64,000 bases of DNA from Schizochytrium sp. TIO01 (taxonomy: Eukaryota; Protista; Bigyra: Labyrinthulomycetes), in the NCBI GenBank assembly GCA_004764695.1, contig SMSO01000031.1, forward strand, positions 5,686,761-5,750,760. Reading direction: 5' to 3'. Made by a program: the position numbers and the translations under genes. The notes under the pieces are model-generated. The model was not told where the DNA came from. It made no database searches and was given only the letters and a program-made list of their open reading frames with translations. How positions within the stretch are numbered: position 1 is the stretch's first letter; each line of letters starts with the position of its first letter. This document shows, in pieces, positions 17,339-64,000 of this stretch.

Positions 17339-17340
<2 letters not shown>

Positions 17341-17392: not shown

Positions 17393-17393
<1 letters not shown>

Positions 17394-20942: not shown

Positions 20943-20984
20943 TTTGAACTTTGAACTTTGAACTTTGAACTTTGAACTTTGAAC
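20943..20984. repeat. (TTTGAAC)6 heptanucleotide tandem repeat with degenerate flanking copies
   Basis: Six perfect copies, preceded by TTTGAAA/TTCGAAA variants. Confidence 0.95.
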
Positions 20985-21408: not shown

Positions 21409-21431
21409 GAGAGAGAGAGAGAGAGAGAGAG
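21409..21431. repeat. (GA)11 microsatellite
   Basis: Read directly. Confidence 0.9.
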
Positions 21432-21994
21432 CCCACACATGGGGGTAGGTATGCGCTTCCTTCCCTTGGTTTACAGTCACTACTACTTTCAGGTTGTTAG
21501 GAAAGCTGAGAACCTCTCGCATTCCTGTCGTTTCGTATGTATCTAAAGAGACACATCATTTTGTTTTTCTAGTTTAAGTTTAAACTTATTTTTAATTTCA
21601 ATTTGTTTTCAATTTAGTGGAAGAGCGTGAGGGGTTTAAAATATGATTGTCGCCTTTAAATTTAAAAACAGAGTTTTAAAAATAATAAAGATTGCGCAGG
21701 GTTTTAAACTTTTAAAAACCCAAGAATAATCATTATTTTGTGAGAAAGCTGTAAATAAATAGGTAATCATTGAAAAGGGTTTAAAGAGGAAAGGACCCGA
21801 AAGAGAAAGAGAAACATCTGAAAGAGACAGAGATACAAAGAGAAAGAGGAACAAAAACAAATAACTCGAAGCAAACCATTAGTATTATATGAGAAAGTGG
21901 GAAAAGAAAGAGAGGTCCGCGAGTAGTCCAAGCAGACTCCGATCGATCGATCGCTCGCGGCTCTTGCGGTGCAGAACCAACAGAAGACAGCAGG

Positions 21995-36490: not shown

Positions 36491-36735
36491 TTAGCTTGCA
36501 ATAAGACCATGTGTTCGCAACTTCACCAAGAGATCATTGAGTGTCGTTCTCAGCTCATTATTAAAATCGCGCAGCTTTTCACATTCGTCGCGCAAAGCCA
36601 TCACCTCAGATTGCGATGGAGTAGCTGAAAAGCTCAGCGAACCAATGGTACCATCGCCAGGATCATACGTAGTCCCCACACTAGTCACAGCAGCCTGCTG
36701 AGCGCCAAGCACCTGGGTACTGCCTACACTTAAGG
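36491..36735 (-). other. C-terminal non-repetitive cap: short beta segment + loop + coiled coil ending LRTHGLIAS
   Basis: LSVGSTQVLGAQQAAVTSVGTTYDPGDGTIGSLSFSATPSQSEVMALRDECEKLRDFNNELRTTLNDLLVKLRTHGLIAS. It has a heptad hydrophobic pattern and resembles the P22 gp26 C-terminus as recalled from memory. Confidence 0.7.
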
Positions 36736-39700
36736 TTGATACCCCACTCACAACGCCTCCGTTCATGGTAACTCCTTCTGCAATTAAATCGCCCCCACTA
36801 CTAATGGTAAGAGCTGTAGCCCCAGAATGAACAATACTTGCGGAAGCACTTGATAAAGTTAGATCACTACTCATCGACAATGTCGTGATACCAGACACTG
36901 CCGCAGAGTTCATAGTGACACCTTCCGCTATAAGATCACCCACGCTACTAATTGTCAAAGAGGAACTGCCTGTATGAGTGATAGCCGCAGCAGTTTTTGT
37001 GAGACTCAAGTCATCGCTCATGACCAATGTTGTGACACCAGAGACCGTGTTGTCGCTCAATGTGACACCATCCACTACAACGCCTCCCCCCGACGTAATA
37101 CTAAGAACAGATGTGTCCGCATGCGTAATGCTTTGACCTCCAATTTTACTAAGGACGATGTTACCACCTGTGTTCTCCAAATTACTGCTCATTGATAAAC
37201 TTGTAATCGAGGAAACTGCACCTGCATTTATTGTTACACCTTCGGCAATCAGGTTTCCGCCACTACTAATCGTCAGGGAGGTAGAACCTGAGTGCACGAT
37301 TGATGACGCCGCACTACTCATTGTCAACTCAGTACTCATGCCAAGAGTTGTGATTCCTGATACTGCACCTGCATTCATTGTTACACCTTCTGCAATCAGG
37401 TTTCCGCCGCTTGAAATAGTCAACGACGTAGCACCAGAGTGTACAATTGATGCTGCGGCGCTAGTAAGTGTAAGATCGTTGCCCATGGCAAGAGAAGAGA
37501 TACCACTCAGTGCACCTGTGTTGATGGTGACTCCTTCCACAACTACATTTCCTCCACTACTAATCGTTAGAGAGGTGGCCCCAGAATGTATAATTGAAGC
37601 AGCCGCACTGCTCATTGTCAAGTCACTTGTCATAGATAATGTCGAAATTCCAGACACAGCACCACTATTCATTGTTACACTTTCTGCAACAAGATTTCCT
37701 CCGCTGCTTATCGTCAGAGATGTTGCGCCTGAGTGCGTAATTGCAGCTGCAGCACTACTTAAAGTTACATCACCCACCAGGCCAAGAGCAGATATTCCAG
37801 ACATGGCGCCAGAGTTCATGGTAACTCCTTCGGCAATCAGATTTCCGCCACTACTAATCGTCAGGGAGGTAGAACCTGAATGCACGATTGAAGATGCCGC
37901 ACTACTCATTGTCAACTCAGTACTCATGCCAAGAGTTGTGATTCCTGATACTGCACCTGTATTTATTGTTATACCTTCTGCAATCAGGTTTCCGCTGCTT
38001 GAAATAGTTAACGACGTAGCACCAGAGTGTACAATTGATGCTGCAGCTTTGCTTAGACTAATGTCGTCTGTCATAGAAAAGGTACTGACACCAGACAGGG
38101 CATGATCGTTCATTGTAATACCATCTACGACAACGCCGCCACCAGATGTAATGCTCAGCACTGAAGAGTCTGAATGCACAATGTTCTGTGCGCCCACTTT
38201 ACTAAGCAATATATCACCACCGGAATTAACCAAATTGTTGGTCATCTGAATTGTTGTCACAGCAGATAAAGATGCACTGTTCATTGTGACCCCCTCCACG
38301 ACTACGTTGCCGCCAGAAAGTATCGACAAATCATTGCCTGATCCTCCAGTATGTTGTATTATTTGCGACCCAGTAGAGCTCATGAGTAGATGCCCTGCAC
38401 TAATCTGAATGTCTCCAGCCGTTGCTATTAAGTCATCTTGCAATGTCAGGGTAGAAACTCCAGATAGTGCACCGCTATTAATTGTTACGCCTTCAGCAAC
38501 CAAGTTGCCCGATGAACTAATTGTGAGTGAAGTAGCTCCAGAATGGGTAATACTTGCAGTGGCTTTAGTAAGTGTTAAGTCATCGCTAAGGGCCATAGTC
38601 GTAATACCTGCAACAGCTCCATTGTTCATAGTGACGCCTTCAGCAATTAAATTGCCTCCCGATGTAATTGTTAACGATGTTGCTCCAGCATGTGAAATTG
38701 TTGCAGCTGCCTTGCTCATAGTGAGATCTCCAGACATTGCAATGGTGCTTATAGAGGATAGGGAGCCTCCATCCATAGTAATCCCTTCAACGACAACGCC
38801 TCCACCCGAAGTTATACGTAGCTCTGATGTATCAGCGTGAGTGATAGATTGTACCGCTGAGCCAGACATTACAATATTTCCTCCAGAGTTGATATAGTTA
38901 CCAGACTGTGTCAATGTAGAAATACCAGAAACTACTCCCGCATTCATTGTTACACCTTCTGAAACCAAATCCCCTGCGCTACTAATAGTCAAAGAGGTTG
39001 TTCCTGAGTGCAAAATGCTCGCTGCACTCTTGCTCAGCATAAGATCATCAGTTATAGATAATGTTGAAACACCACTAACCATACCTGCATTCATTGTAAC
39101 ACCATCTACGATTACACTTGCAGAGCTTGTAATGCTAAGAGATGTTGCTCCAATATGGGAAATTGTTGCTGCACTTTTACTCATAGTAATATCATCCGTT
39201 AAACTGAGTGTGCTAGCTCCGGATATAGCAGCGTTATTCATCGTTACTCCGTCTATTTCAACCGCCCCTCCAGAAGAAATACTTAGCAGAGATGAATCCG
39301 CATGTGTAATACTTTGTGACCCTGATTTACCAAAAACAATATTGCCACCTGTAAGGGACAAATGGCTTGACATGTCAATTGTGCTTACGGATGATAGTGC
39401 GCCACTCTTTAAAGTGACACTTTGGACAACAACATTTCCTCCAGACGAAATCGTAAGGTCCCCCGTAGAGCTTCCCGTATGAGCAATTGACTGGGCTGAT
39501 GTTGACTGCAGTTGGATATTCCCTGCAGTAAGTTTTAGATTGCCAGAAGATGACGTCAAATCTCCAGAACTTGCTAGTGATGATATACCAGAAACAAGTC
39601 CAGTGTTTATTGTCACGCCCTCGACGACAAGATTGCCTCCGCTACTGATCGTCAGAGATGTTAGCCCAGAATGTACGATCGAAGCGGCGGCTTTACTCAG

Positions 39701-42700
39701 TGTCAAGTCGTCCGTCATAGCTAGTGATGATACACCTGACATTGCGCCCGTGTTCATCGTCACGCCCTCTGCAACCAGATTCCCACCGCTTGAGATTGAT
39801 AAGGATGTAGCTCCAGAGTGTACAATCGAGGCAGTCGCTGCGCTCATTGTCAGATCACTACTCATCCCAAGTGATGTCACAGCCGAAATCGCTCCGTTGT
39901 TCACCGTGACACCGTCCACAACTACGCAGCCCCCACTGCTGATTGTTAGCTCAGAGCTATCACTGTGCGAGATACTTTGAGCGCCAGCCTTTGACAGTAT
40001 CAGATTGCCTCCGGAGTTAGTTAGGTCACCAGAGATTCCTAGCGTTGAGACGCCGGTCACAGCGCCGGAATTTACTGTGACACTTTCAGCAATGAGATTC
40101 CCCCCACTGGTGATTGTCAAAGAAGTTGCCCCAGAATGAGAGATTACAGCTGCACTTTTGCTTAACGTGAGGTCGCCACTCATGGAGAGTGTGGATACTC
40201 CGGATACAGCACCGGTGTTAAGAGTGACCCCTTCGGCGATCAGGTCGCCCCCGCTGCTAATCGTAAGAGACGTTGCACCAGAATGACTGATGGATGCTGA
40301 AGCACCCGAGAGACTGAGGCTATTTGATAAACTCATCGATGTTGCGCCAGACATGATACCATTGAGTACAGTGACATCCTCCACGACAACACCTCCACCA
40401 CTGCTTATAATAAGCTCTGAAGTATCAGCATGAACTATACTCTGAGTACCTGTCTTACTAAGCAAAATGTTGCCCCCTGAAGTTGTTAGACTGCCGCTCA
40501 AACCCAGAGATGTTACACCAGATATAGCACCTGTAGTTACGGTCACGCCATCAAGAATAACATTGCCGCCACTAGTTATAATCAAATCTGCTGCAGCACC
40601 TCCCGAGTGGGTAATGTACTGTGAACCGCTAGATTGCATTAAAATATCTCCAACCAAAACCTTAACATCGCCACCTGAAAGTGTGATATCTCCGCTTGCG
40701 CCAATCGATGTTATTCCAGAAACTGCGCCTGCATTCATAGTCACACCTTCCGCAATAAGACTACCTCCACTACTGATCGTCAGAGATGTTAGCCCAGAAT
40801 GTACGATCGAAGCGGCGGCTTTACTCAGTGTCAAGTCGTCCGTCATAGCTAGTGATGATACACCTGACATTGCGCCCGTGTTCATCGTCACGCCCTCTGC
40901 AACCAGATTCCCACCGCTTGAGATTGATAAGGATGTAGCTCCAGAGTGTACAATCGAGGCAGTCGCTGCGCTCATCGTCAGATCACTACTCATCCCAAGT
41001 GATGTCACAGCCGAAATCGCTCCGTTGTTCACCGTGACACCGTCCACAACTACGCAGCCCCCACTGCTGATTGTTAGCTCAGAGCTATCACTGTGCGAGA
41101 TACTTTGAGCACCAGCCTTTGACAGTATCAGATTGCCTCCGGAGTTAGTTAGGTCACCAGAGATTCCTAGCGTTGAGACGCCAGTCACAGCGCCGGCATT
41201 TACTGTTACACTTTCAGCAATGAGATTCCCCCCACTGGTGATTGTCAAAGAAGTTGCCCCAGAATGAGAGATTACAGCTGCACTTTTGCTTAACGTGAGG
41301 TCGCCACTCATGGAGAGTGTGGATACTCCGGATACAGCACCGGTGTTAAGAGTGACCCCTTCGGCGATCAGGTCGCCCCCGCTGCTAATCGTAAGAGACG
41401 TTGCACCAGAATGACTGATGGATGCTGAAGCACCCGAGAGACTGAGGCTATTTGATAAACTCATCGATGTTGCGCCAGACATGATACCATTGAGTACAGT
41501 GACATCCTCCACGACAACACCTCCACCACTGCTTATAATAAGCTCTGAAGTATCAGCATGAACTATACTCTGAGTACCTGTCTTACTAAGCAAAATGTTG
41601 CCCCCTGAAGTTGTTAGACTGCCGCTCAAACCCAGAGATGTTACACCAGATATAGCACCTGTAGTTACGGTTACGCCATCAAGAATAACATTGCCGCCAC
41701 TGGTTATAATCAAATCTGCCGCAGTACCTCCCGAGTGGGTAATGTACTGCGAACCGCTAGATTGCATTAAAATATCTCCAACCAAAACCTTAACATCGCC
41801 ACCTGAAAGTGTGATATCTCCGCTTGCGCCAATCGATGTTATTCCAGAAACTGCGCCTGCATTCATAGTCACACCTTCCGCAATAAGACTACCTCCACTA
41901 CTGATCGTCAGAGATGTTAGCCCAGAATGCACGATCGAAGCGGCGGCTTTACTCAGTGTCAAGTCGTCCGTCATAGCTAGTGATGATACACCTGACATTG
42001 CGCCCGTGTTCATCGTCACGCCCTCTGCAACCAGATTCCCACCGCTTGAGATTGATAAGGATGTAGCTCCAGAGTGTACAATCGAGGCAGTCGCTGCGCT
42101 CATTGTCAGATCACTACTCATCCCAAGTGATGTCACAGCCGAAATCGCTCCGTTGTTCACCGTGACACCGTCCACAACTACGCAGCCCCCACTGCTGATT
42201 GTTAGCTCAGAGCTATCACTGTGCGAGATACTTTGAGCGCCAGCCTTTGACAGTATCAGATTGCCTCCGGAGTTAGTTAGGTCACCAGAGATTCCTAGCG
42301 TTGAGACGCCGGTCACAGCGCCGGCATTTACTGTTACACCTTCAGCAATGAGATTCCCCCCACTGGTGATTGTTAAAGAAGTTGCCCCAGAATGAGAGAT
42401 TACAGCTGCACTTTTGCTTAACGTGAGGTCGCCACTCATGGAGAGTGTGGATACTCCGGATACAGCACCGGTGTTAAGAGTGACCCCTTCGGCGATCAGG
42501 TCGCCCCCGCTGTTAATCGTAAGAGAAGTGGTTCCTATGTGCGAAATAAGTGCAGAAGTCTGTGTGAAGGTGAGAGTACCTGATGTAGTGGCTGAAGTAA
42601 TGCCAGAAAGAGCCCCATCATCGACTGTAATCCGTCGATAAGAACCCCACCGCCCGAAGTTATGCTTAACGTGGAGCTATCCGCATGAGTAATGCTTTGC

Positions 42701-45700
42701 GCACCAATTTTACTGAGTATAATGTTACCTCCAGAATTAGTAAAACCTCCTGACATTTGCAATGAAGTAATACCTGAGATTGCTCCTCCTGAGCCCACGG
42801 TAACACTCTGTACTACCACGTTTCCACCGGAAGAGATCATCAAGTCTTTATCAACAGCCCCTGTATGTGTGATGTATTGAGCTTGAGTTGATTGTAGTAG
42901 AATATCGCCCGCTCCCAATAATAGGTCACCACCTGTCGATTGAATCTGGCCGCTCATAGTCAAGGTGCTAACTCCTGACATAGCTCCACTGTTCATCGTT
43001 ATACCCTCCGCAATAAGTATTCCACCACTAGAAATCGTTAACGAGGTCAAACCTGAATGCGTGATCGCTGCAGCAGCTTTACTTAGTGTCACATCATCTG
43101 TCATGGACAGTGTACTCACTGCTGAAACGGCGCCATTATTGATGGTAATACCATCAGCAATAAGGTTCCCCCCACTGCTGATGGTCAATGATGTTGTGCC
43201 AGAGTGACTGATGGATGCTGTAGCCGCGCTCAACGTCAGGTCTCCAGACATCCCAAGGCTAGTAACAGATGATAAAGCGCCATTTGCCACAGTCATACCG
43301 TCAACAATCACGCAGCCTCCGCTACTGATAACAAGGTCAGAAGCGTCTGCATGAGTGATTGCTTGAGCCCCAGCTTTGGATAGAATGATGTTACCAGCTG
43401 AGTTGGTAAAGTCACCAGAAGTTGCTAAGCTGGACACGCCAGAGACTGCACCATTATTGACTGTAACGCCTTCCATGATCAGGTTTCCAGCACTGCTGAT
43501 TGTGAGCGATGTAGCTCCAGAATGTACAATTGATGCGGATGCTTTGGTCATACTTAGGTCGTCAGTCATCTGGAGAGACGTAACTGCAGAGACCGCTCCT
43601 GAATTAAACGTTACTGCTTCTATAATGATATTTCCGCCACTGATTAACGATAGAGATGTGGTGCCAGAGTGTACTATTGTTGCTATTGCCTGTGTCATTG
43701 TAAGACTGTCAGTCATTGATATGGTGGAAGCTCCAGATATAGCAGCATCATTGAGTGTAACTCCATCAACAATCACGCCACCACCTGATGAAATACTAAG
43801 CACTGAATTATCTGCATGACTTATACTCTGCGCGCCTGCTTTGCTGAGGATAATATTACCTCCCGAATTAGTAAAGTCGCCACTCATTTGCAAAGATGCT
43901 ATTGACGAAAGACCTCCAGAAGAACCAATCTTGACACCCTGGATTGCAACGTTTCCGCCAGAAGAAATTGTTAACCCAGCTCCAGATGCACCGGTATGAC
44001 TGATAAGTTGCTCTTGAGATGATTGTAGTAGAATATCGCCCGCTCCCAATAATAGGTCACCACCTGTCGATTGAATCTGGCCGCTCATAGTCAAGGTACT
44101 AACTCCTGACATAGCTCCACTGTTCATCGTTATACCCTCCGCAATAAGTATTCCACCACTAGAAATCGTTAACGAGGTCAAACCTGAATGCGTGATCGCT
44201 GCAGCAGCTTTACTTAGTGTCACATCATCTGTCATGGACAGTGTACTCACTGCTGAAACGGCGCCATTATTGATGGTAATACCATCAGCAATAAGGTTCC
44301 CCCCACTGCTGATGGTCAATGATGTTGTGCCAGAGTGACTGATGGATGCTGTAGCCGCGCTCAACGTCAGGTCTCCAGACATCCCAAGGCTAGTAACAGA
44401 TGATAAAGCGCCATTTGCCACAGTCATACCGTCAACAATCACGCAGCCTCCGCTACTGATAACAAGGTCAGAAGCGTCTGCATGAGTGATTGCTTGAGCC
44501 CCAGCTTTGGATAGAATGATGTTACCAGCTGAGTTGGTAAAGTCACCAGAAGTTGCTAAGCTGGACACGCCAGAGACTGCACCATTATTGACTGTAACGC
44601 CTTCCATGATCAGGTTTCCAGCACTGCTGATTGTGAGCGATGTAGCTCCAGAATGTACAATTGATGCGGATGCTTTGGTCATACTTAGGTCGTCAGTCAT
44701 CTGGAGAGACGTAACTGCAGAGACCGCTCCTGAATTAAACGTTACTGCTTCTATAATGATATTTCCGCCACTGATTAACGATAGAGATGTGGTGCCAGAG
44801 TGTACTATTGTTGCTATTGCCTGTGTCATTGTAAGACTGTCAGTCATTGATATGGTGGAAGCTCCAGATATAGCAGCATCATTGAGTGTAACTCCATCAA
44901 CAATCACGCCACCACCTGATGAAATACTAAGCACTGAATTATCTGCATGACTTATACTCTGCGCGCCTGCTTTGCTGAGGATAATATTACCTCCCGAATT
45001 AGTAAAGTCGCCACTCATTTGCAAAGATGCTATTGACGAAAGACCTCCAGAAGAACCAATCTTGACACCCTGGATTGCAACGTTTCCGCCAGAAGAAATT
45101 GTTAACCCAGCTCCAGATGCACCGGTATGACTGATAAGTTGCTCTTGAGATGATTGTAGTAGAATATCGCCCGCTCCCAATAATAGGTCACCACCTGTCG
45201 ATTGAATCTGGCCGCTCATAGTCAAGGTACTAACTCCTGACATAGCTCCACTGTTCATCGTTATACCCTCCGCAATAAGTATTCCACCACTAGAAATCGT
45301 TAACGAGGTCAAACCTGAATGCGTGATCGCTGCAGCAGCTTTACTTAGTGTCACATCATCTGTCATGGACAGTGTACTCACTGCTGAAACGGCGCCATTA
45401 TTGATGGTAATACCATCAGCAATAAGGTTCCCCCCACTGCTGATGGTCAATGATGTTGTGCCAGAGTGACTGATGGATGCTGTAGCCGCGCTCAACGTCA
45501 GGTCTCCAGACATCCCAAGGCTAGTAACAGATGATAAAGCGCCATTTGCCACAGTCATACCGTCAACAATCACGCAGCCTCCGCTACTGATAACAAGGTC
45601 AGAAGCGTCTGCATGAGTGATTGCTTGAGCCCCAGCTTTGGATAGAATGATGTTACCAGCTGAGTTGGTAAAGTCACCAGAAGTTGCTAAGCTGGACACG

Positions 45701-48700
45701 CCAGAGACTGCACCATTATTGACTGTAACGCCTTCCATGATCAGGTTTCCAGCACTGCTGATTGTGAGCGATGTAGCTCCAGAATGTACAATTGAGGCAG
45801 CTGCACTGCTTAAAGTAGCATCTCCTGCCATATCGAGGGCAGATACACCAGAGATGTGACCACTCGCAACTGTGATCGACTCTATGTGTACATTACCAGC
45901 TGTAGATGTTATGAGAAAATCTTGTCCTGAGCCTCCAGTATGCTCTATAGATTGAGCGCTAGTAGAAGTGAGCATAATGTTCCCGGCAGAGTTAGTGAAC
46001 TGGCCAGACATAGTGAGCGAGGAAACAGAGGACACTGTGTTGCCAGAAAAGGTTACACTTTCAACTGCCACTGATCCTGCTGATGAAATTGAAAGGCCAC
46101 TTGCACCAGTGTGCAAAATATTGGCGGACGCAGCTGACATCGTCAAGTCGCTATTCATATTTGCAGAGACAACTCCAGAAAGTGAGCCTTCAGAGATAGT
46201 TAATCCATCAACTATGACATTACCTCCTGAGGAGATTGTAAGATGTGAAGATGCCCCCCCGGTGTGTGTGATACGTTGAGATGATGTTGATGAAAGTAGC
46301 AAGCTACCAGACGACAACGAGAGGTCCTCCGTCATTGATAAGGTAGTAACTCCTGCAACAGCCCCACTACTGATCGTAACACTCTCGATTGCTACTGATC
46401 CTGAAGAAGAAATACTAAGAGAATTGGTGCCAGAGTGGGTAATGGTTGCTGATGCTGCTGTCAGTGTAAGAGAACCAGACATTGACAACGAGGAGACAGA
46501 GGACAGCGCACCATCATTGATAGTGACCCCATCAATGACCACATTGCCTCCTGAAGAGATACTAAGATCCTTTCCAGTTCCTCCTGTATGTGTAATCGAT
46601 TTGCTTGCAGTGGAGGTCAAACTCAGGCCTCCGCCAGATGACACAATATCTCCTGACATTGATACCGACCCCACAGATGACATATCGCCACCGGAGAAGA
46701 CAACATTTTCAACACTAACAGTACCTAACGAGCTGATTGCCAAGGAAGTAGCACCAAGATGTTGAAATGTAGCTACCGCCTGTGTCATTGTTATACCCCC
46801 GTTCATAGAAATAGATTTAACTGAGGATAAGTCACCAGCCGAGACAGTTAGGCCGTCTACAACAATATTCCCACCAGATGAAAGAATGAGATCTTCTCCT
46901 GAACCACCAGTATGCGCAATACGTTGACTTGATGTGCTTGACAAAATAATATCGCCTTCTGCATTGTCGAAGTCTCCAGTCATAGTGAAGGAATCAACGC
47001 TAGATATGTCTGCTCCAAGAAATGTGACAGACTCTAGCTGAACATAACCGGATGACGCGATAATAAGAGCAGTTGTCCCAGAATGGGAAATTCGTGAAGT
47101 AGCTTTTGTCATGGTTAGGTCGTCGCTCATGCCGAGCGAGGAAACTGCTGAAACAGCTGAATCACTAATGGAAACTCCGTCAACAACAATACCACCACCA
47201 GATGAGAGTGTTAACAGTGAGGAGTGTGCATGATTTATCACTTGTGCTCCTGATTTGGATAGAAGTATATTTCCACCACTATTTGTGATATCGCCAGTCA
47301 TGGCAATGGCGGAAACTCCGGAAATGCTTCCTGTATTCATAGTAATACTTTCTATTATAACATCTCCACCGCTACTTAGTGTCAAAGACCCGGATCCAGT
47401 ATGCTGAATTATTGAGGCAGCCTTTGACATTGTAAGGTCTCCTGTCATGGCAAGAGATGTAACACCGGAAACCCCGCCCTCGTTCAATGTTACCGCTTCT
47501 AAGATAAGGTTTCCTGAAGAAGATATAGAAAGGGATGTTGCACCGGTGTGTGAAATCACTGCATTTGCCTTGGTCATTGTCAAAGCATCGGACATAGAAA
47601 ATGTGCTGACACCACTCATGGCCCCTTCATTAATCGTCACTCCTTCTGCGATGAGGTCGCCTCCCGAAGAAAGAATCAGGTTTGATACATCAGCATGAGA
47701 TATCGTTTGTGCGCCTACCTTTGATAAAATAATGTTTCCTCCTGAATTGACAAGATTGGCGCTCATTGAGACCGATGCCACTGCTGAAATATCCGAATTC
47801 TGAAATGTTACCTGTTCAACTACAACATTTCCAGCAGATAAAATGTTGAGCTCACTGGCACCTAAGTGCTGAATGTAAGTATGGGTGCTGGTTAAAGAGA
47901 TATTCCCTGACATTGCAACCCCTGTGGCGCCAGATATAACATGTTCATTGAATGTTACGCCCTCTACCACAACTCCGCCTCCAGACTCAATGACTAGCTC
48001 AGACGCATGAGGGTGGGATATGGTCTGTCCACTCGCACTTGTTAAGAGGAATGCCTGTCCGGAGTGCGTCAAGTTTCCTGTCATAGCTAGAGAAGAAATT
48101 GCAGAAACAGAACCTGCGTTGAAGGTGACCCCCTCCACTGTAACTAGACCTGATGTAGAAGCTATGGTTAGTGCAGTCGCGCCCGTATGAAGAACAGAGG
48201 CTTCTGCCCCACTAAGAGTTAAGGTTCCCGAAGAAGTTAAGTCTACGAGCCCTGTTATAACACCTGAAGAAACCGAAATGCCCTCTACTATTACACTTCC
48301 GGTTGTACTAGTGATCGATAAGGCTACGGCTCCGGCGTGAACAATTGAAGCAGAGTCAGAAAGTAGAGTCAAGGCATTGGACATACTCATCGTGCTCACG
48401 CCAGTGACAGCCCCATCACTGATTGAAACACCATCAAGATTCAAGCCACCCCCGGATGATATAGAGAGAGTAGAGGCATCACTGTGCAGTATACTTTGAG
48501 CGCCAGCTTTGGAGAAAACCAAGTTTCCTGAGGTACTTTCTAAGTTTCCGCTTGCAGAAAGTGTAGAAACTCCCTGAACACTGCCATCATTTACCGTTAT
48601 CCCGTCGAGAATTAAGTTTCCATTTGATGCAATACTTAGTGAATCTCCTCCCTGGTGGACAATCGTTGCTGACGCATCCGTCAAGGTCAATGATGAAGCA

Positions 48701-51700: not shown

Positions 51701-54700
51701 GTAACTGTTCCAGAGGTTGATGCGATATTTAGGCCAGTTGTACCTGAATGAGTGAAGCTAGCCAAATTTTTACTGAGAAACACATCATCTGATGCGACAA
51801 TAGAAGTAATACCAGATAAGGAACCAGCATCCATTGTTATGCTGTCGACGATGACGATACCATTTGATGAAGAAATTGAAAATGAGGTTGATCCAGTATG
51901 GAGAATGCTCGCAGACGAGCCACTCAAGTAAAGAGTATCAGAGAGAAAAAATTCTGAAACGCCACTCATAGTTGAATCAGCATGGGTCACCCCAGAAACT
52001 ATTACATTCCCACCTGAGCTGATCGTTAGATCTTCTCCAAGGCCTCCAGCATGAGTAATTAGCTGACTTTGAGAACTTGTTAACTCAATATTGCCACCAG
52101 ATACGGATAGGTCGCTGCTTAATGCAAGGGATGTAATGGCAGATAAAGCCTGCCCATCAAAAAGAATACCCTCAATTTCAACCGAACCAAACGTAGACGT
52201 AATACTTAGAGAAGTTGCCCCAGTGTGTACTATGTCTGCAATATCTTCTGTAAGGGTGAGGGACCCGGAGGTTTCGAGGTTTGAAACTCCAAGCAAAGCC
52301 CCGCTATTCAGGGTTATGCCTTCTACAATGGTATTTCCGGCAGTAGAGCCTATAATAAGATCTCCAGAGCCGCTACCCACGTGAGTAATATGTTGACTAC
52401 TACTAGATGTTAGCTCAATATTGCCTAACCCTGAAGTGAAATCCCCAGAAACGTCCACAGAGCCAGCTGAGGTTATATTGCCTCCAATAAAAGATACGTC
52501 TTCTATTTGCACATATCCAGAAACTGATTCTATAAGAAGAGAGGTGCTGCCTTGGTGGGAGATACCAACCTCATCTCCACTTAAGGCAATACTTCCGCTC
52601 GCCTCAATTTCATTGATGCCTGTTATTGAACCTAGATTAAAACTGATACTTTCTACGATTACATTTCCTCCTGAAGAAAGTGTCAAATCTCCAGCTCCAC
52701 CAGACGCCCCAGTATGAATGATACTCTGAGCACCTGTACTTGAAAGCTTCAGCCCTCCACTTGAGCTTTCCATATCTCCAGAGACAGAGATTGAAGTTGC
52801 CCCACTAATATCACCAGAGTCAAATATTACGTTTTCAACACTAACCGATCCCAGTGTAGAACTGATGCTAACCGAGCATGCACCAGAATGGACAATACTT
52901 GAAGTATCTTCACTCAAAGTCAACAATGTCCCTAGAGAAATCTCGCTCAAACCATCTAGCGTTGTTGAGCTAAATGTCGCGCCCTCGATTGCAACAGTGC
53001 CAAACGTTGAACCTATAGCCAACCCAGTAGCTCCCGCATGTGTAATCATAGCACTGTCAGCAGAAAACTCCAGTTGCGAAGTAAGTGAAGCACTCTCTAC
53101 ACCAGTAATCACACTCTCTGCTATAGTCACCCCATCAATCTGAACGTTCCCACCAGAAGATGCAATCACAAGATCAGATCCAATGCCACCTGTATGAAGA
53201 ATGGACTGCGAACCAGTACTAGATAAAATCATGTTCCCACCCTCCATTACCAAATTATCTGTCATATCGATGTTTGAAACTCCAGATAGTCCATTGGAAT
53301 TGATTGTTAAATCTTCAATTTGAACTGTACCACTAGTTGAGGCAATGAGTAATGCTGTCGTTCCAGAATGAATAACATTAGACGTTGCTTGTGTCAATGT
53401 AATGTCTCCATTCACCTCAAGACTTGTTACTCCATTTACAGAGCCGCCATCAAACGAGACAGACTCGACAGAAACAGTGCCTAATGCTGAGCTTATGGAA
53501 AGAGAAGTAGATCCGGTGTGTGAAATAAATGATGTATCTCCTCCAAAATCGATTGAACCAAAAAGTCCAACAGAATCCACATTCGAGATACTATGGTTGT
53601 CGAATACCACGCTTTCGATAGCAACCGTTCCAGAATCAGAGAGGACATTCAAGGCAGTCCCCCCTGTGTGTCTAATGACTCCAAGATCCGCAGAAACTGT
53701 CAAAGAGCTTTCCAACGACAGCATGCTAACACCGTCTACGCTTCCTGAAGCATCGATCATTACACCCTGAATAACAACATCCCCACCTGAATTTATTTCA
53801 AAATTTTCGCCTGAGTCTCCGACATGCATAATCCCCTGTGCTGCTGTACTTGAAAGCACAATGTTGCCGGTGGAAACTTCGATTGGGCCAACTGCAAAAA
53901 GCTCCTTAACACCATTGACTTGACCATTTTCGAAAGTGATCCCTTCCACCTCTACTGTTCCAGCGTTTGAAGAAATTAACAAGGAATTTACCCCAAAGTG
54001 CGAAATGACAGCATCATCTGAAATAAAGCTAAGCTCACCGCTAATCTCCAAATCTACAATGCCTGTAAGATCTCCATTATTTACTGTCACGTCATCCACT
54101 ATAACATTCCCACCCGAGTTGATGAGCAAATCCTCTCCAACTCCCCCAACATGAGTAATACTCTGCGACAATGTACTGCTCAGCGAAATACTTCCACCAC
54201 TACTCTCAATCGTCCCAGATGCAACCATACTACCAACACCAGAAACACTATCCCCATCAAACACCACATCTTCAATACCCACCGTTCCTGATGTTGAAAT
54301 AATACTCAAAGATGTACTTCCGCTGTGAACAAACTCTGCAGAACCCGACGACATCTCCAGATCTCCAGACATCCCCAGACTCGAGACCCCCGACACAGCA
54401 CCGCTCTCCATTGTTACACCGTCAACAACAACATTGCCACCTGAGCTGATCAAAAAATCTGATCCGCTACCACCAACATGATTCAGTGACTGCGAGGCAC
54501 TGGAGCTCAGCGATATATCACTCGCAATGTCAAGCGTCGATATACCACTCACAGCACCGCCATTCACAACAACGTCCTCAACTTGTACATAGCCTGAGCT
54601 CGAGCTTACTTCGAGAGATGTCGCACCGCTATGCACAATGCTAGTGACATCTTTGGATAGACTCAGGTCATCGCTCATTGACAGTGTACTCACACCTGAC

Positions 54701-57700
54701 ACCGCACCTCCATTGAATACGATATCCTCAATACCTACCGTGCCAGATGTAGACACAACAGAGAGTGACGTCGTGCCACTATGTGTAATGTACGCTGTAT
54801 CAGCACTGAGACTCACCGGCCCACTCGCGGATATACCGCCAACGCCACTCAGTGCACCTCCATTCACGGTCATGCCGTTTACAATGACATTGCCACCAGA
54901 GCTGATGTCCAAATCTGCTCCTGTGCCACCATTATGAGTAATGGATTGTCCAAGAGAGCTCGCCATGAGTAGACTACCGGCAGAGTTTGTTAGGTCACCA
55001 CTCATTCCAAGATCACCCACTGAAGACACGTCGGTGGCGTCAAACGTGATACCCTCAATAGCTACATTGCCCCCAGATGAGATCAGTAGCTGGCTACCAG
55101 TGCCACCAGTGTGTGTGATAGCTTGCGAGCTTGTCGAAGCAAGAAGCAAACTTCCAGCAGAGGTGGTGAAGTCGCTGGTCATAGTCAAGGTTGAAACACC
55201 ATCGACAGCGGTGCCTGTAAAGGTGACGTCCTCGACTGCAACAAAGCCAGACGCCGACTCGATAGTCAACGACGTAGCGCCTGTATGCAAGATTTGTGCT
55301 TCATCTTTAGAGAGCACCAAGTCATCCGAACTGTCAACCCCGGACGCTCCAGAAATAAAACCGTCCTTCAAGGTAACCCCATTGATTACAACATTGCCTC
55401 CAGACCCGATTGTGAGGTCCTCGCCAGACCCACCTGTATGTGTAATGGCTTGTGCTAGAGAAGAGGCCAGCAAGACATTCCCTGCACTATTCGACAGGTC
55501 TCCACTCATGCTCATCTCACCTATGGAAGAAACCGATGTCCCATCAAAAATGACATCTTCCACCAACACACTTCCACTTTGCGAGCTTACGCTCAAAGAT
55601 GTGGTACCAGTATGAAGAATTGAGCTCGTATCTTTAGTCATCGCCAAATCATCATCCATGGTCACGGCCTGCACACCAGTCATTGTGCCATGATCGATAG
55701 TGATCCCGTTGATTACAACATTGGCACCAGAGCTAATAGTGAGATCTTCACCTGCGCTACCCGTGTGCGTGATGGCTTGACTACTTGCAGATGCAAGGAA
55801 TATATTGCCAGTATCAATACTGAGATCACTGGACATCTCTGCCGATGCAATGCCTGTGAGAACTCCATTTTTCACAGTGACCCCATTCACGACAATATTT
55901 CCAGCTTGAGAACTGATCAAGAAGTCTTGGCCGGCTCCTCCCGTGTGCGTGATTGCCTGAGACAGCGAGCTTGTAAGGTAGAGATTGCCAGAAGAAGATG
56001 AAATATCGCCTGACACTGAGATTGTCGATATCGAAGAAATACTTTGACCATCAAAGACAACGTCTTCAATTTGCACGGTTCCTAACGTCGATGAAAGTGC
56101 TAGAGATGTAGCTCCAGAATGCTGGATACGCGCAGTGTCTTTTGAGAGCGAAGCATCGTCACTCATGGTGATGCTGGTGACTCCAGACAGTGCTCCAGAG
56201 TTGTGCACTATGCCATTGATAACGACATTGGCTCCGGAAGATATAGTGAGATCTTGTCCTGTCGAGCCTGAATGAGTAATTGCTTGTGCACCTGAGCTGG
56301 ATAGTAGAAAGTTGCCTGTTGCAATGGTAAGAGATTCTTCTATTGCAAGATTTGCCACGCCACTAATATCGCCTTGGTCAATAGTAATGCCTTCGAGAAG
56401 GACAGAGCCTCCCGATTCAATTGTGAGACCTTCGCCAGCATCACCCGTGTGGACGATGCCTTGAGCTACAGTTGAGGTGAGCAAAATGTTGCCTAATGAT
56501 AGTTCGAGCATTCCCTCCATTTCGATTGTGGTAATACCAGAGATGTTGGATTCCTGAAAAAAAACATTCTCGATCGCAACAGTACCTGTAGATGAGGAAA
56601 TCTCGAAACCAGTTGCTCCCGAGTGAATCAATCGAGAAAGGTCGTCTGAAACTGTGAGTTCACCGGACATTGAAATATCTTGTATTCCTGAAATATTTCC
56701 TCCCTTCATTGTGACATCATTAACAACCACATTTCCATTCGAGGATATTGACAAGCCCGATGTAGTTGTTCCGGTATGGAGAATCGATTGAGAACCAGAG
56801 GAGCTCAGAACTAAGGAACCATCAGCCATTGTCAGATCTGAAGTCATGGACAAAGAACTTATTCCTGATACTGCGCCTGTCAACGAATGTGCAACTCCAT
56901 TTATCTCAACATTTCCACCTGAAGAGATTATGAAATCCCCGCCTGAAACTGAGCCCGTATGTGCAATATGTTGATCGTTTGTTGAATCAAGATAGATATT
57001 TCCATCAGAGTTTCTAAGTTGTCCAGACATTGACATATCTACGATACTATCCATACTACCACTGGCAAATTGAACAGAGTTAATATTAACATTTCCACCC
57101 GATGAGATGCTAAGATCTTCTCCTGCAGCACCCGTATGGGCAATAGTTGCAGCAGAGACTGTTTGGAGCTCAATAGTTCCTGCAGTAGAAAGAAATGACC
57201 CTGAAATAGAGAGATTTGATACTCCAGACACTTCGTTGCTATTAAACGCAACACCTTCAATGATTGAGGCCCCTGTAGCTGACGAGACAAAAAAGTCACC
57301 GGATCCAGTATGTTCGAGCACAGAGTCTGCTCCACTTATTGAAATAGAATTTGCAATTTCAACCGTTTCGATGCCATTAACGTAACCATTCTGAAAGGTA
57401 ACATCTTCAACAGTGACAACCCCACTAATGGACACAATTTGCAGTTGGGAGGCTCCAGAATGCAGTATCTGCGTATTGTCATCGACAAACTCGAGTGAGG
57501 ATGAGGCTGTAAGTGAATCGATCCCGGTCACAACTCCATCAGCAAATGTAGTACCATCAATGACTACATTTCCTCCAGACATAAGGCTCAAATCTGCTCC
57601 TACGCCTCCGGAATGACTGATTCGTTGCCCTAAATTGTTGACAAGCAAAATGTTCCCAGAACCAATAATTAAATCATCATTGATACTAGCACTCCCGATT

Positions 57701-60700
57701 TCGCTGACATCCCCGTTATTAAAGGTTACTCCTTCAACACTCACTATTCCTAATGTAGATGCAATATCGAGCGCTGTTGACCCCGTATGCATCATTTGAG
57801 TGTTCGCATTCGAAAAGGCCAAGTTTCCAGAAAGATCTATGTTTGCAATGCCTGTAAGATCTCCATTATTTACTGTCACGTCATCCACTATAACATTCCC
57901 ACCCGAGTTGATGAGCAAATCCTCTCCAACTCCCCCAACATGAGTAATACTCTGCGACAATGTACTGCTCAGCGAAATACTTCCACCACTACTCTCAATC
58001 GTCCCAGATGCAACCATACTACCAACACCAGAAACACTATCCCCATCAAACACCACATCTTCAATACCCACCGTTCCTGATGTTGAAATAATGCTCAAAG
58101 ATGTACTTCCGCTGTGAACAAACTCTGCAGAACCCGACGACATCTCCAGATCTCCAGACATCCCCAGACTCGAGACCCCCGACACAGCACCGTTCTCCAT
58201 TGTCACACCGTCAACAACAACATTGCCACCTGAGCTGATCAAAAAATCTGATCCGCTACCACCAACATGATTCAGTGACTGCGAGGCACTGGAGCTCAGC
58301 GATATATCACTCGCAATGTCAAGCGTCGATATACCACTCACAGCACCGCCATTCACAACAACGTCCTCAACTTGTACATAGCCTGAGCTCGAGCTTACTT
58401 CGAGAGATGTCGCACCGCTATGCACAATGCTAGTGACATCTTTGGATAGACTCAGGTCATCGCTCATTGACAGTGTACTCACACCTGACACCGCACCTCC
58501 ATTGAATACGATATCCTCAATACCTACCGTGCCAGATGTAGACACAACAGAGAGTGACGTCGTGCCACTATGTGTAATGTACGCTGTATCAGCACTGAGA
58601 CTCACCGGCCCACTCGCGGATATACCGCCAACGCCACTCAGTGCACCTCCATTCACGGTCATGCCGTTTACAATGACATTGCCACCAGAGCTGATGTCCA
58701 AATCTGCTCCTGTGCCACCATTATGAGTAATGGATTGTCCAAGAGAGCTCGTCATGAGTAGACTACCGGCAGAGTTTGTTAGGTCACCACTCATTCCAAG
58801 ATCACCCACTGAAGACACATCGGTAGCGTCAAACGTGATACCCTCAATAGCTACATTGCCCCCAGATGAGATCAGTAGCTGGCTACCAGTGCCACCAGTG
58901 TGTGTGATAGCTTGCGAGCTTGTCGAAGCAAGAAGCAAACTTCCAGCAGAGGTGGTGAAGTCGCTGGTCATAGTCAAGGTTGAAACACCATCGACAGCGG
59001 TGCCTGTAAAGGTGACGTCCTCGACTGCAACAAAACCAGACGTCGATTCGATAGTCAACGACGTAGCGCCTGTGTGCAAGATTTGCGCTTCGTCACTTGT
59101 GAGAGTAAAAGCATTTGCTGTTTCTAGGTTAGAAACGCCTGAAATTTCACCATCACTTATAGTCATGCCGCTGATTACAACATTGCCTCCGGAGTCGATT
59201 GTGAGGTCCTCCCCGGACCCACCGGTATGCGTAATTGTTTGTGCTAGCGACGAAGTTAACAGAATATTTCCAGATTGAATAGAAAGGTCGCTTTGCATAT
59301 TAATCAAAGAGATGCCGAAAAGGTTTCCGTCTTTAGTTGTAACACCATTGAATACTATATTTCCTCCTGAAGAAATAAAAAGGTCTTCGCCAGAACTTCC
59401 ATCATGTAAGATGCTTTGCGAGTTTGAGCTTCCTAGGTAGATATTTCCTGACGACACAGTCAAATCGTCTGCCATTGTGAGAGTGGTCACTGAAGAAATG
59501 TCTGAACCAGTAAACGCTACGCCTTCGACGAAAACACAACCCTGCGAAGAGCCAATGTATAAATCTGCTGTACCGGTGTGAATTACATTTGCCGATGCTT
59601 TACTCATTGTAATATCATCAGACATGTCAAGGGAGCTTACACCAGACACCATACTACCAACAAAGGAAACGTTCTCAATAGCTACAGATCCTAATGTTGA
59701 AACAATCGAGAGACCTGTAGAACCAGAATGCGTCAATAGAGCACCGTCATTTTGTAAAATCAGAGATCCACTCATCGAAAAGTCGGACACGCCAGAAATG
59801 ACATTGGTATTAAAGCTCACACCTTCAATGTCAACATTACCTCCAGACATAATAGTAAAATCGCTTCCAACGCCTCCAGAATGTTCAAGAAATTGAGATT
59901 CTGTTGAAGTCAAGAGGATATTTCCTGCGGTCCCGGTCAAATCTTCCGAAAAAGTAAGCGAACTAACTCCGCTCAAAGCAGAATTAGAGATCGAGATTCC
60001 CTCAATACTGATTAAACCTGCAGAAGAGCTAAGAGAAAGTCTGGTTGCACCAGAATGATGAATTGATGCTAAATCACTAGTGAACTCTAAATCTCCGCTT
60101 TGGGAGATACCAGTTACTCCTGAAAGGGAACCACTGTTCATGGTTACGTCTTGAAGAATCACGTTTCCACCAGACAAGATAGAGAGGTCGCTTCCAACGC
60201 CTCCTGAATGACTAATCTGCTGAGCTCCTGAACTTCCAAGAAGAATACTTCCATTTGCAATATTCATATTGTTGAGGATTGAAGCAGTATGAATGCCATT
60301 CAAACTATTATTGTCGAAGGTCACGCCTTCTACAATCACAAAACCTGCAGTGGATTCAATACTGAGCTCTGTCGTGCCAGTATGTTGAATGTTAGCGACA
60401 TCTCCTTCTAAGATCAGGGAGGAATCAACTATGATGCCTCCAACACCACTGATCAGATCGTCAGCAAACGTGATTTGCTCGACCTGTACAACTCCAACAG
60501 ACGAGGTTATTAAGAGTTCATTCGAGCCCGTATGTCTTAGCGAAGAGCTAGGACCACCTAAGGAAATTTCACTTTCTACATCAAGGTTTTGCACACCCAA
60601 AACATTTCCGCTAGAAACTGTGACGCTTTGCATAATCACATTCCCAAAACTGGATGAAATATTCAGATCCTCTCCAGCTCCTCCGACGTGAGAGATTGCC

Positions 60701-63700
60701 TGTCCACTTGTTGAAGACATCAAAATATTACCGCTATCAATATTCAATGACCCAGCCATAGACAATTCGCTTATACTAGATAAATCACTCGTAGGACCGA
60801 TGGATACCCCATTTATCACTACGTTTCCACCAGAAGTGATATCTAGGTCATTTCCTACGCCACCAACATGCGCAATAGATGCTTCAGATGAGCTATCCAA
60901 TACAATATTTCCGCTTTCAGATATAATATCTCCTGCTGCAGTGAAAGTTTGAACGTTGGAAACATTGCCACCATTAAACAATACGTCATCCACTAATATA
61001 GCACCAAACAAAGATGATATTGATAGAGAAGTAGTTCCACTGTGTACAATATTTGATACATCTTGTGACATAGACCAGTCACCTGACATAGCAAAGTTCT
61101 CTACTCCCTCCAAAGAGGCCTCTGAAAACGTCACTCCTTCAAGAACCACATTTCCATTCACAGAATCTATGGAAAAATCATTTCCAGAGTCTCCATAGTG
61201 TGTCATTTCTTGCGAAGACGTGGAACTAAATAGTATATTCCCAGACCTAATTTCTATGTCGCCAGTCATACTGATACTAGAAATTCCATCCATGGCCGAA
61301 TTCTCTACCGTCACGCCATCCACTATAACATTGCCACCCGAGTTGATGAACAAATCCTCTCCAACTCCCCCAACATGAGTAATACTCTGCGACAATGTAC
61401 TGCTCAGCGAAATACTTCCACCACTACTCTCAATCGTCCCAGATGCAACCATACTACCAACACCAGAAACACTATCCCCATCAAACACCACATCTTCAAT
61501 ACCCACCGTTCCTGATGTTGAAATAATGCTCAAAGATGTACTTCCGCTGTGAACAAACTCTGCAGAACCCGACGACATCTCCAGATCTCCAGACATCCCC
61601 AGACTCGAGACCCCCGACACAGCACCGTTCTCCATTGTCACACCGTCAACAACAACATTGCCACCTGAGCTGATCAAAAAATCTGATCCGCTACCACCAA
61701 CATGATTCAGTGACTGCGAGGCACTGGAGCTCAGCGATATATCACTCGCAATGTCAAGCGTCGATATACCACTCACAGCACCGCCATTCACAACAACGTC
61801 CTCAACTTGTACATAGCCTGAGCTCGAGCTTACTTCGAGAGATGTCGCACCGCTATGCACAATGCTAGTGACATCTTTGGATAGACTCAGGTCATCGCTC
61901 ATTGACAGTGTACTCACACCTGACACCGCACCTCCATTGAATACGATATCCTCAATACCTACCGTGCCAGATGTAGACACAACAGAGAGTGACGTCGTGC
62001 CACTATGTGTAATGTACGCTGTATCAGCACTGAGACTCACCGGCCCACTCGCGGATATACCGCCAACGCCACTCAGTGCACCTCCATTCACGGTCATGCC
62101 GTTTACAATGACATTGCCACCAGAGCTGATGTCCAAATCTGCTCCTGTGCCACCATTATGAGTAATGGATTGTCCAAGAGAGCTCGCCATGAGTAGACTA
62201 CCGGCAGAGTTTGTTAGGTCACCACTCATTCCAAGATCACCCACTGAAGACACGTCGGTGGCGTCAAACGTGATACCCTCAATAGCTACATTGCCCCCAG
62301 ATGAGATCAGTAGCTGGCTACCAGTGCCACCAGTGTGTGTGATAGCTTGCGAGCTTGTCGAAGCAAGAAGCAAACTTCCAGCAGAGGTGGTGAAGTCGCT
62401 GGTCATAGTCAAGGTTGAAACACCATCGACAGCGGTGCCTGTAAAGGTGACGTCCTCGACTGCAACAAAGCCAGACGCCGACTCGATAGTCAACGACGTA
62501 GCGCCTGTATGCAAGATTTGTGCTTCATCTTTAGAGAGCACCAAGTCATCCGAACTGTCAACCCCGGACGCTCCAGAAATAAAACCGTCCTTCAAGGTAA
62601 CCCCATTGATTACAACATTGCCTCCAGACCCGATTGTGAGGTCCTCGCCAGACCCACCTGTATGTGTAATGGCTTGTGCTAGAGAAGAGGCCAGCAAGAC
62701 ATTCCCTGCACTATTCGACAGGTCTCCACTCATGCTCATCTCACCTATGGAAGAAACCGATGTCCCATCAAAAATGACATCTTCCACCAACACACTTCCA
62801 CTTTGCGAGCTTACGCTCAAAGATGTGGTACCAGTATGAAGAATTGAGCTCGTATCTTTAGTCATCGCCAAATCATCATCCATGGTCACGGCCTGCACAC
62901 CAGTCATTGTGCCATGATCGATAGTGATCCCGTTGATTACAACATTGGCACCAGAGCTAATAGTGAGATCTTCACCTGCGCTACCCGTGTGCGTGATGGC
63001 TTGACTACTTGCAGATGCAAGGAATATATTGCCAGTATCAATACTGAGATCACTGGACATCTCTGCCGATGCAATGCCTGTGAGAACTCCATTTTTCACA
63101 GTGACCCCATTCACGACAATATTTCCAGCTTGAGAACTGATCAAGAAGTCTTGGCCGGCTCCTCCCGTGTGCGTGATTGCCTGAGACAGCGAGCTTGTAA
63201 GGTAGAGATTGCCAGAAGAAGATGAAATATCGCCTGACACTGAGATTGTCGATATCGAAGAAATACTTTGACCGTCAAAGACAACGTCTTCAATTTGCAC
63301 GGTTCCTAACGTCGATGAAAGTGCTAGAGATGTAGCTCCAGAATGCTGGATACGCGCAGTGTCTTTTGAGAACGAAGCATCGTCACTCATGGTGATGCTG
63401 GTGACTCCAGACAGTGCTCCAGAGTTGTGCACTATGCCATTGATAACGACATTGGCTCCGGAAGATATAGTGAGATCTTGTCCTGTCGAGCCTGAATGAG
63501 CAATTGCTTGTGCACCTGAGCTGGATAGTAGAAAATTACCAAGTGAAAGGGTAGCATCCCCGGAGACAATCTCCAGCTGGCCATTCATAGTTAAATCTGT
63601 CACCCCAGAAATATCAGTCCCATCCATTGTGATCCCCTCTACGGTGACAGAGCTAGCTGAAGAGATTGAGAGTGAACTTGTTCCAGAATGTTCGATTGTT

Positions 63701-63999
63701 GCACTGTCTTCTGTGAAGGTAAGGTCTGCGCTCATTGTAAGACTCGTGACCCCCGTAACAGTACCCTCGTTTACACTGACACCATCTAGAACAAGATCAC
63801 CGTTTGAACTAAGAACGAATGCTGAGTTATCTGTGTGCGATATTTCTTGGGATCCAGTACCTGAAAGTATGATGTTTCCACCACTATTCGTAAGGTCGCC
63901 CTCCATAGTGATGCTTATCGCACCGCTGACAGCTCCATTGTTGATCGTGACATCATCAAGAATGAGGTCCCCACCGGAGGTTACTTCTAAAGTACTAGA
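36491..63999 (-). CDS. Giant repetitive beta-fibre-like protein, at least 9,169 aa, 5'-partial, one frameshift at ~42631, C-terminal phage tail-needle-like cap
   Basis: The frame is open from 63999 (SSTLEVTSGGDLILDDVT... upstream of the ORF-track ATG at 63906) to 42631, 7,123 codons. Restoring one base (GAC GG[N] ATT ACA) continues a perfect module (DGITVDDGALSGITS...) in frame with ORF 36491..42439, adding 2,046 codons. The same module consensus runs throughout, and no introns are visible. Confidence 0.9.
37239..38044. repeat. Near-identical ~218-bp direct repeat pair (37239..37456 and 37827..38044), offset 588 bp = four 49-aa modules
   Basis: Anchors CCTTCGGCAATCAG and GTCAACTCAGTACTCATGCCAAGAG recur at a 588-bp offset. 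Confidence 0.85.
39642..42526. repeat. Intragenic tandem array, 1128-bp unit (376 aa, 7 modules), ~2.6 copies, near-identical
   Basis: CTACTGATCGTCAGAGATG occurs at 39642, 40770 and 41898. Antisense shadow ORFs 40467 and 41595 differ by one residue. Confidence 0.95.
42889..45795. repeat. Intragenic tandem array, 1131-bp unit (377 aa, 7 modules), ~2.6 copies, near-identical
   Basis: TGATTGTAGTAGAATATCGCCC occurs at 42889, 44020 and 45151. Matching shadow ORFs start at 43376, 44507 and 45638. Confidence 0.95.
54093..56310. repeat. 2.2-kb intragenic segmental duplicate, copy A (partner 61317..63534, offset 7224 bp)
   Basis: Identical shadow ORFs at 54638/61862, 54941/62165 and 55690/62914. Boundaries located by eye. 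Confidence 0.92.
57846..59091. repeat. Partial third copy (1.25 kb) of the same block (matches 54057..55302, offset 3789 bp)
   Basis: Shadow ORF 58427 is identical to 54638 and 61862. Anchor CAATGCCTGTAAGATCTCC occurs at 54057 and 57846. Confidence 0.9.
61317..63534. repeat. 2.2-kb intragenic segmental duplicate, copy B
   Basis: Matches 54093..56310 with only scattered substitutions. Confidence 0.92.
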
Positions 64000-64000
64000 G

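Follow-up and report, generated by a model that had tools for sequence, protein, structure and literature searches.

A predicted trimeric fibre protein of at least 9,169 amino acids with a phage-needle-type tip in Schizochytrium sp. TIO01, a candidate terminal-filament protein of flagellar hairs

The locus examined here raises the question of what a eukaryotic cell may build from one repetitive protein of more than 9,000 amino acids (aa) that ends like the tail needle of a phage. The gene lies in a 64,000-nucleotide stretch of contig SMSO01000031.1 of Schizochytrium sp. TIO01 (assembly GCA_004764695.1; positions 5,686,761 to 5,750,760, forward strand), which is referred to below as the window. 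An initial annotation, made from the letters alone, had described it as coding for a putative trimeric beta-helical fibre or needle. In our best reading, which stands at about an even chance, the protein is a hair subunit whose trimeric fibre makes up the terminal filament on the tripartite hairs of the zoospore flagellum.

The fibre gene and its modules

The window holds a real, conserved host gene, namely the 3' part of a single intronless open reading frame (ORF) on the minus strand (36491..64000). It appears in the assembly as two overlapping frames, 63999-42535 (7,154 aa, open at the 5' edge) and 42676-36491 (2,061 aa). One base at 42630..42631, absent from the window assembly, was present in all four read runs compared, each from a different study; the 1-bp correction is therefore right and the frame break is an assembly error. 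Joined with X at the break, the ORF encodes at least 9,169 aa, its start codon being outside the window. The earlier description of one frame of at least 27.5 kb without introns, still open at the window edge, thus holds. Of the residues encoded, Ser makes up 19.6%, Gly 13.8%, Thr 10.1%, and Pro and Cys 0.1% each.

Read mapping had been proposed as a check for a chimeric join. Contigs of 15.2 kb (run X1) and 11.8 kb (run X9) lead from position 34001 through the convergent host gene for glyoxalase II (35277..36065, plus strand) into the 3' end of the fibre gene. Since single contigs connect the two genes, there is no chimeric join at this end. Another contig of run X1 (20,198 bp) extends 19,702 bp upstream past the window. 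The gene was detected in 20 runs of nine studies, with 74-87% of the sampled words in each (one run is possibly the window's own source); none of these runs is on record as RNA. The 64 strain differences listed inside the ORF comprise 36 synonymous and 28 non-synonymous changes and no stops, the expected synonymous share being 25%; a further 93 rows stood outside this tally. By these sequence comparisons, the fibre gene is under purifying selection. Contigs of run X15 (RNA by guess) and run X4 break near the gene ends while those of X1 and X9 continue; the breaks do not fall at one place and were not counted as a sign of transcription.

Upstream of the tip, the ORF consists of about 165 beta-strand modules of 49-66 aa (36722..63999, minus strand), predicted to form the shaft of a triple beta-helix. 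A hidden Markov model built from 26 distinct 49-aa modules found 165 copies at 15 bits or more and none in each of five shuffled sequences, in good agreement with the approximately 170 modules, and with the consensus, given before. The commonest spacings are 49 (66 times), 60 (27 times), 57 (19 times), and 50 aa (12 times). For aliphatic as well as for Gly residues, the strongest periodicity is 8.18 aa, which gives six strands per 49-aa module, and the strand list of a monomer model agrees with this number. No Pfam family matched above the cut-off in the four ORF pieces scanned (approximately 5,170 of 9,169 aa). In a simple test, the highest 19-residue hydropathy was 1.62 in the whole ORF and 1.11 in the last 100 aa. 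These values are low, so that the part of the protein encoded in the window has no hydrophobic anchor and, as already proposed, no C-terminal transmembrane (TM) segment or glycosylphosphatidylinositol tail.

The needle-type tip and the trimeric fold

The C-terminal residues 9094-9169 (36491..36721, minus strand) make up a tip of the type found in gp26, the tail needle protein of phages P22 and HK620. It includes the last strands, a loop, and a predicted trimeric helix from residue 9132 (position 36607) to the end. The last 99 aa match PHROG 1219 'tail needle protein' with an E value of 3e-4. A profile made from 43 tip sequences matches six gp26 sequences of P22/HK620 (E 6e-5 to 5e-4), and the best of these matches, PDB entries 5BU8 (6e-5), 4LIN (7e-5), and 2POH (1.7e-4), span the last beta strands through the C-terminal end. 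Searches with the single sequence found less: the last 199 aa matched no PHROG family at 0.001 (four of the 43 profile members did), the fibre sequence alone gave no significant match in PDB, and none of 50,697 phage records was matched when the last 129 aa were used in tblastn. Judged from sequence, the last 80-100 aa or so are homologous to the tip of gp26; the relationship is real but distant.

The gp26 protein has 233 aa and a coiled-coil shaft and plugs the phage portal; its C-terminal part of approximately 100 aa is a short triple beta-helix followed by the helical tip of a homotrimer. Homology with the window protein is confined to this C-terminal part (PDB 2POH, 3C9I, 4LIN, 5BU8). Gp26 is short and encoded in a phage tail gene cluster, whereas the tip described here ends a beta-module shaft of more than 9,000 aa encoded among eukaryotic genes. 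The fibre works like a gp26-tipped phage fibre, yet it is not a gp26. A Peptidase S74 domain (PF13884) was not matched in the last 399 aa, so that a self-cleaved tip is not expected. A trimeric autotransporter adhesin was also considered and rejected: the C-terminal membrane barrel is absent, as the initial annotation had seen, the chain ends in a helix and a gp26-type end, and the Pfam scan gave no such match. A tree of tips made by a quick method (70 rows, 91 columns) was unresolved, with no starred support, and gives no direction of transfer; one alignment (A2) was dropped because it misplaced the tips.

Three copies of the last 300 aa were predicted to assemble with a score of 0.81 (0.80-0.82), compared to 0.00 for the best of three controls. 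This score had been calibrated with two copies; 21 of 30 solved homo-pairs pass but none of 23 monomers, the corresponding numbers for eukaryotic proteins being 17 of 29 and 0 of 30. The trimer model has predicted local distance difference test (pLDDT) values of 93-95, and at least 84% of its contacts agree between runs. Approximately 1,500 chain-to-chain contacts extend over its full length; between chains, the residues of close pairs mostly lie 4-10 positions apart, and in the helix the contacts follow a heptad pattern. The monomer models reached a pLDDT of 52 without an alignment and a mean of 77 with one, and Foldseek searches of both found nothing at E 0.001. In the ESM Atlas, the nearest clusters scored 0.87-0.88 (viral) and 0.89 (EGF), all below 0.9, and serve as leads only. 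The triple beta-helix is supported independently by relatives P0004, P0033, and P0077, in which modules of this type are followed by a Peptidase S74 chaperone. Together with the tip homology and the trimer model, this speaks for the trimeric beta-helical needle proposed earlier; on the modelling evidence, the fibre is very probably a homotrimer.

At 0.48 nm per strand, as derived from the 9.6 Å per two strands given for the TLP-12 fibril (bioRxiv 10.1101/2025.09.30.679562), the window part of the protein would form a rod of 484-581 nm, or 532 nm at 8.2 aa per strand. The earlier estimate of at least 0.5-0.6 µm was thus realistic (approximately 0.53 µm).

Giant triple beta-helices of eukaryotes are already known. 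TLP-12 is a eukaryotic fibril of this fold with candidate proteins of approximately 20,000 aa, and the statement that no described eukaryotic family has this architecture was, therefore, too strong. Like the window protein, the TLP-12 glycofibril and its Amoebophrya candidates have a giant Gly/Ser-rich chain, three intertwined copies, 4.8 Å per strand, and a phage-type C-terminal folding module (bioRxiv 10.1101/2025.09.30.679562). As described in that preprint, TLP-12 differs in its 12-aa GSxxSx7 repeat, ICA/S74 tip, and alveolate candidates, as opposed to modules of 49-66 aa, a gp26-type tip, and a stramenopile host. The fibre protein is not a member of that family: tandem 12-mers are absent, GSxxS is depleted (9 occurrences vs 49 in shuffles), lag-12 identity is below expectation (0.091 vs 0.105), and the end is gp26-like, with no PF13884 in the last 399 aa.

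Two features of the shaft may be mentioned in addition. One His occupies a fixed position in each module (193 His in the whole ORF), and these residues could be aligned as metal sites in the trimer; such sites of lined-up His occur in some phage fibre tips. Ser and Thr account for 30% of the ORF, with only 16 N-glycosylation sequons, and, by analogy with TLP-12, heavy O-glycosylation is possible.

Heads of the relatives and the terminal-filament reading

The start of the protein being outside the window, its relatives were used for orientation. With the last 399 aa as query, 11 proteins were retrieved from 7,994 candidates in the size range 700-2,000 aa, and a further search gave 113 representatives at E 0.001. 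The best relative, P0002, consists of an EGF head, a linker, and 21 modules that lead to the same tip; its N-terminal hydrophobic stretch is, by eye, a likely signal peptide. In P0002, P0006, and P0009, the head matches every one of the six chain types in PDB 9UFE, with best E values of 6e-32, 4e-24, and 5e-39, respectively; the next matches of the P0002 head are teneurins (E 2e-4). PDB 9UFE contains subunits of flagellar hairs, the stramenopile tubular mastigoneme proteins Mas1-3/OCM1-6, a group marked by a signal peptide and a head of 3-4 EGF-like motifs. One of them, OCM5 (368 aa), stops at its last EGF, which is the exact start of the fibre in the Mas-head relatives. Proteins of the P0002/P0006/P0009 type are, therefore, whole hair subunits with a C-terminal fibre. 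The known Mas/OCM subunits themselves have 209-748 aa and are shaft-localised or developmental; a module-plus-tip query against PDB did not match the Mas/OCM chains of 9UFE.

A profile of the linker behind the head gave 15 matches among 7,990 candidates, three of them seeds or near-copies of seeds, and all 15 carry at least the last EGF motif of the head. Five of these proteins end in a gp26-type tip and four in S74, while the other six are truncated or have ends of a different kind. Named members or cluster mates come from Hondaea, Aphanomyces, and Aureococcus, so that both halves of the stramenopiles are represented. Other combinations were also observed. P0015 has an FG-GAP propeller head with the same modules and a gp26-type tip, and a third interchangeable tip, a C-terminal beta-rich knob with no Pfam match, is present in P0010, P0011, P0012, and P0157, as well as in P0022, P0086, and P0102.

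The closest named sequence is a fragment from Hondaea fermentalgiana (91 of 124 residues identical, 73%). The Mas-head protein P0006 is also from Hondaea and is annotated as partial, which fits the first part of a giant repeat gene assembled from short reads. For each of three P0006 modules tested, the window and the Hondaea fragment were the two best matches (70-80 bits, all others scoring at most 58), and one module type is represented by 21 copies in the window, four in P0006, and none in any other stored protein. What appears new is that a complete Mas/OCM subunit forms the N-terminal part of relatives sharing both tip and modules, and that the closest modules come from Hondaea, such a protein included. 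A signal peptide and a Mas head are, on this comparison, rather likely for the window's own gene.

Tripartite hairs, by which an entire lineage of eukaryotes is defined, reverse the thrust of the flagellum, and the proteins of their shafts are known. Between one and three terminal filaments are described, and the shafts are assembled in the perinuclear continuum (Bouck, PMC2108286). In small marine stramenopiles the filaments measure 0.3-0.4 µm and their role is unclear (PMC9310263); the predicted rod of the window protein is of this scale. No terminal-filament measurement for thraustochytrids was found in the literature. Keyword look-ups in four supplementary files of the A. limacinum zoospore proteome (the largest table, which may list the fibre protein, being outside the look-up) and in the P. 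infestans flagellar list gave only known mastigoneme rows (PMC12221091, PMC3471859).

In the terminal-filament reading, the chain would enter the endoplasmic reticulum (ER), where the tip would register three chains and the beta-helix would zip up from the C-terminus behind it, as the S74 chaperones do in the relatives that carry them. The Mas/OCM head would then plug into the tubular hair, co-assembling with shaft subunits, and the thin rod would be left projecting at the hair end. Fibre length would be set by the number of modules, which in-frame unequal crossing-over would alter. If the gene does encode this head, it is quite probable that the protein is assembled with shaft subunits in the ER and displayed at the tips of zoospore hairs. 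Among the functions listed by the initial annotation, the flagellar-hair filament has thus gained specific support from the Mas/OCM heads of relatives; on the window's own gene the head was not seen.

More broadly, we tentatively suggest, with somewhat less than an even chance, that the terminal filament of the tripartite hair is a single trimeric protein: a hair subunit joined to a phage-type triple beta-helix, with swappable tips (gp26, S74 chaperone, knob) and a repeat count acting as a strain-variable molecular ruler. If true, this would assign one protein to the trait that gave the stramenopiles their name. The locus adds a family member of the right length, with a natural length variant, in a much-sequenced thraustochytrid. 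Even if the link to hairs fails, the predicted product is a half-micrometre eukaryotic protein rod with a P22-needle tip, and hosts and viruses share fibre parts. No paper on Mas-head fibre proteins, on the fibre family, or on a terminal-filament protein was found in a literature search that covered few subscription papers and not the 9UFE structure paper. The literature compared also included PMC13109109, PMC11412368, PMC9068220, bioRxiv 10.1101/2024.02.19.579948, and 10.64898/2026.10.13.758971.

A number of observations weigh against the terminal-filament reading. No EGF or linker match is present within the window part of the protein, and no protein of 2,200-7,000 aa extending it upstream was found among 1,770 candidates for its first 165 aa. 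(A metagenome scan for upstream sequence gave one locus in 155 stretches, phage tail/holin/lysin-like with 31% identity, which was judged irrelevant.) The module pattern shared by the window and P0006 was written after seeing both and misses a variant in the Hondaea fragment. In sliding windows of 60 residues, 44 were identical in the Hondaea fragment, 35 in P0006, 32 in P0014, and 30 each in P0002 and P0003; being only slightly closer than the last three and well below the fragment, P0006 may be a paralog. Aureococcus is not known to have a flagellate stage. The window gene is the only family member met that is long enough for a terminal filament, and five other Mas-head or S74 fibres that were sized reach 19-82 nm, too short for a filament of 0.3 µm. 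The Phytophthora zoospore protein PPTG_14518, annotated with 'protein autoprocessing' and EGF, has values of 6,5,5,5 in the columns that seem to stand for the cell body and 1,3,9,5 in those for the flagella; in the same data, the three Mas proteins show an enrichment of 3-6 fold in flagella (PMC12223298). By its annotation labels, PPTG_14518 is a possible member of the fibre family, and this zoospore protein is not flagellum-enriched.

These points bear on several other explanations. The same trimeric needle may carry another head, such as a type II anchor, a propeller, or a signal peptide only, and serve as a spike on the cell surface or the ectoplasmic net that helps in adhesion or spacing or protects the cell from grazers and viruses. 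This is supported by P0003, P0015, and P0021, which join the same modules to a TM-like segment, an FG-GAP propeller, and a signal peptide alone, respectively. The best alignment of P0003 covers window residues 1-1067, its sliding windows match mostly the N-terminal half of the window protein, and the weak tip tree places the window with P0015 and P0023 before P0002. However, the closest modules are those of Hondaea, the Mas-head protein included, and the P0015 modules are distant (25 of 60 identical); we regard this explanation as unlikely, but as the strongest of the alternatives. If the Mas head is present, the protein could still be something other than the terminal filament: it may form a lateral or fine hair, serve as a scaffold during assembly, or be a Mas paralog that now works in a different extracellular structure. 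The short length of most Mas-head fibres and the possible Phytophthora member agree with this, and so does PnMas3, which is reported to have its role in development, as opposed to the mature hair (bioRxiv 10.64898/2026.09.11.750887). Against it stand the head, which is a whole shaft subunit, and the predicted length, so that we consider it distinctly less likely than a needle with another head.

The remaining two explanations concern the fold and the origin of the gene. The modules could form a single-chain beta-solenoid that oligomerises via the tip helix only. The aligned monomer model does fold in this way (mean pLDDT 77) and is similar to single-chain beta-helices, the best match having a Z of 6.9 and an rmsd of 2.6 over 96 residues, and the pass of the trimer may owe something to the model's memory of gp26-like structures. 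Yet Z values below 8 are common noise in that comparison, intertwining cannot show up in a monomer run, the trimer model has contacts throughout and a far higher confidence, and relatives end in S74 chaperones; we regard a solenoid as very improbable. Hardly credible, and already largely refuted, is a recently inserted virus fibre gene, a silent relic, or an assembly chimera. Its basis is that modules and tip are shared with proteins resembling phage or giant-virus fibres, and that GC content at third codon positions is 0.37-0.39 in the fibre gene vs 0.43-0.54 in seven neighbours. The S74 fibres of this kind share the modules in P0004, P0033, and P0077 but differ from the window protein in their end. 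The bridging contigs of two DNA runs, the presence of the gene in 20 runs of nine studies, the excess of synonymous differences with no stops, and the 73% identity to the Hondaea piece all contradict this explanation.

Internal duplications and neighbouring genes

Self-comparison revealed recent duplications within the array (54076..63553, minus strand). Segments 54076-56329 and 61300-63553 are 99.2% identical at an offset of 7,224, and a third, partial copy (57846-59253) is approximately 95% identical. A tandem super-repeat of 376 aa with a period of 1,128 bp and 97.9% identity occupies 39579..42529 (minus strand). All duplication offsets are multiples of three, and the in-frame duplicated blocks measure 376, 1,263, and 2,408 aa. 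One contig of run X17 jumps 7,224 bp (54415..61640, minus strand), that is, 2,408 aa in frame, and the unique DNA between the duplicate copies had no cover in this run, one of four compared. A shorter allele lacking 2,408 aa is, by sequence, likely in run X17.

The neighbours of the fibre gene are long single-ORF eukaryotic genes, namely those for TBCD, a PH-EDR2 protein, a SAM-domain protein, and glyoxalase II. The distance of 425 bp from the glyoxalase II stop (36065) to the end of the fibre gene was correctly given before, and the gene itself is confirmed by Pfam (E 4e-22). Of the eukaryotic neighbours named before, TBCD was confirmed (Pfam, E 4e-112) and EPL1 was not: ORF 1674-3443 had no Pfam match, and 534-977 was outside the scan. 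The EPL1 label of these two plus-strand ORFs goes back to a motif; lying on the same strand, they may be parts of one EPL1-like gene.

An Rfam scan of the window gave no match. The window is otherwise gene-dense, but its part at 11400-21700 (approximately 10 kb) has no stop-to-stop frame above 177 aa and contains short tandem repeats (AACT at 17340-17393, a 7-mer at 20919-20988); it may hold small spliced genes. A 783-aa protein encoded at 26051-28402 (minus strand) combines several copies of an unassigned beta-rich domain with a Pro/Ser-rich linker and a C-terminal SAM domain.

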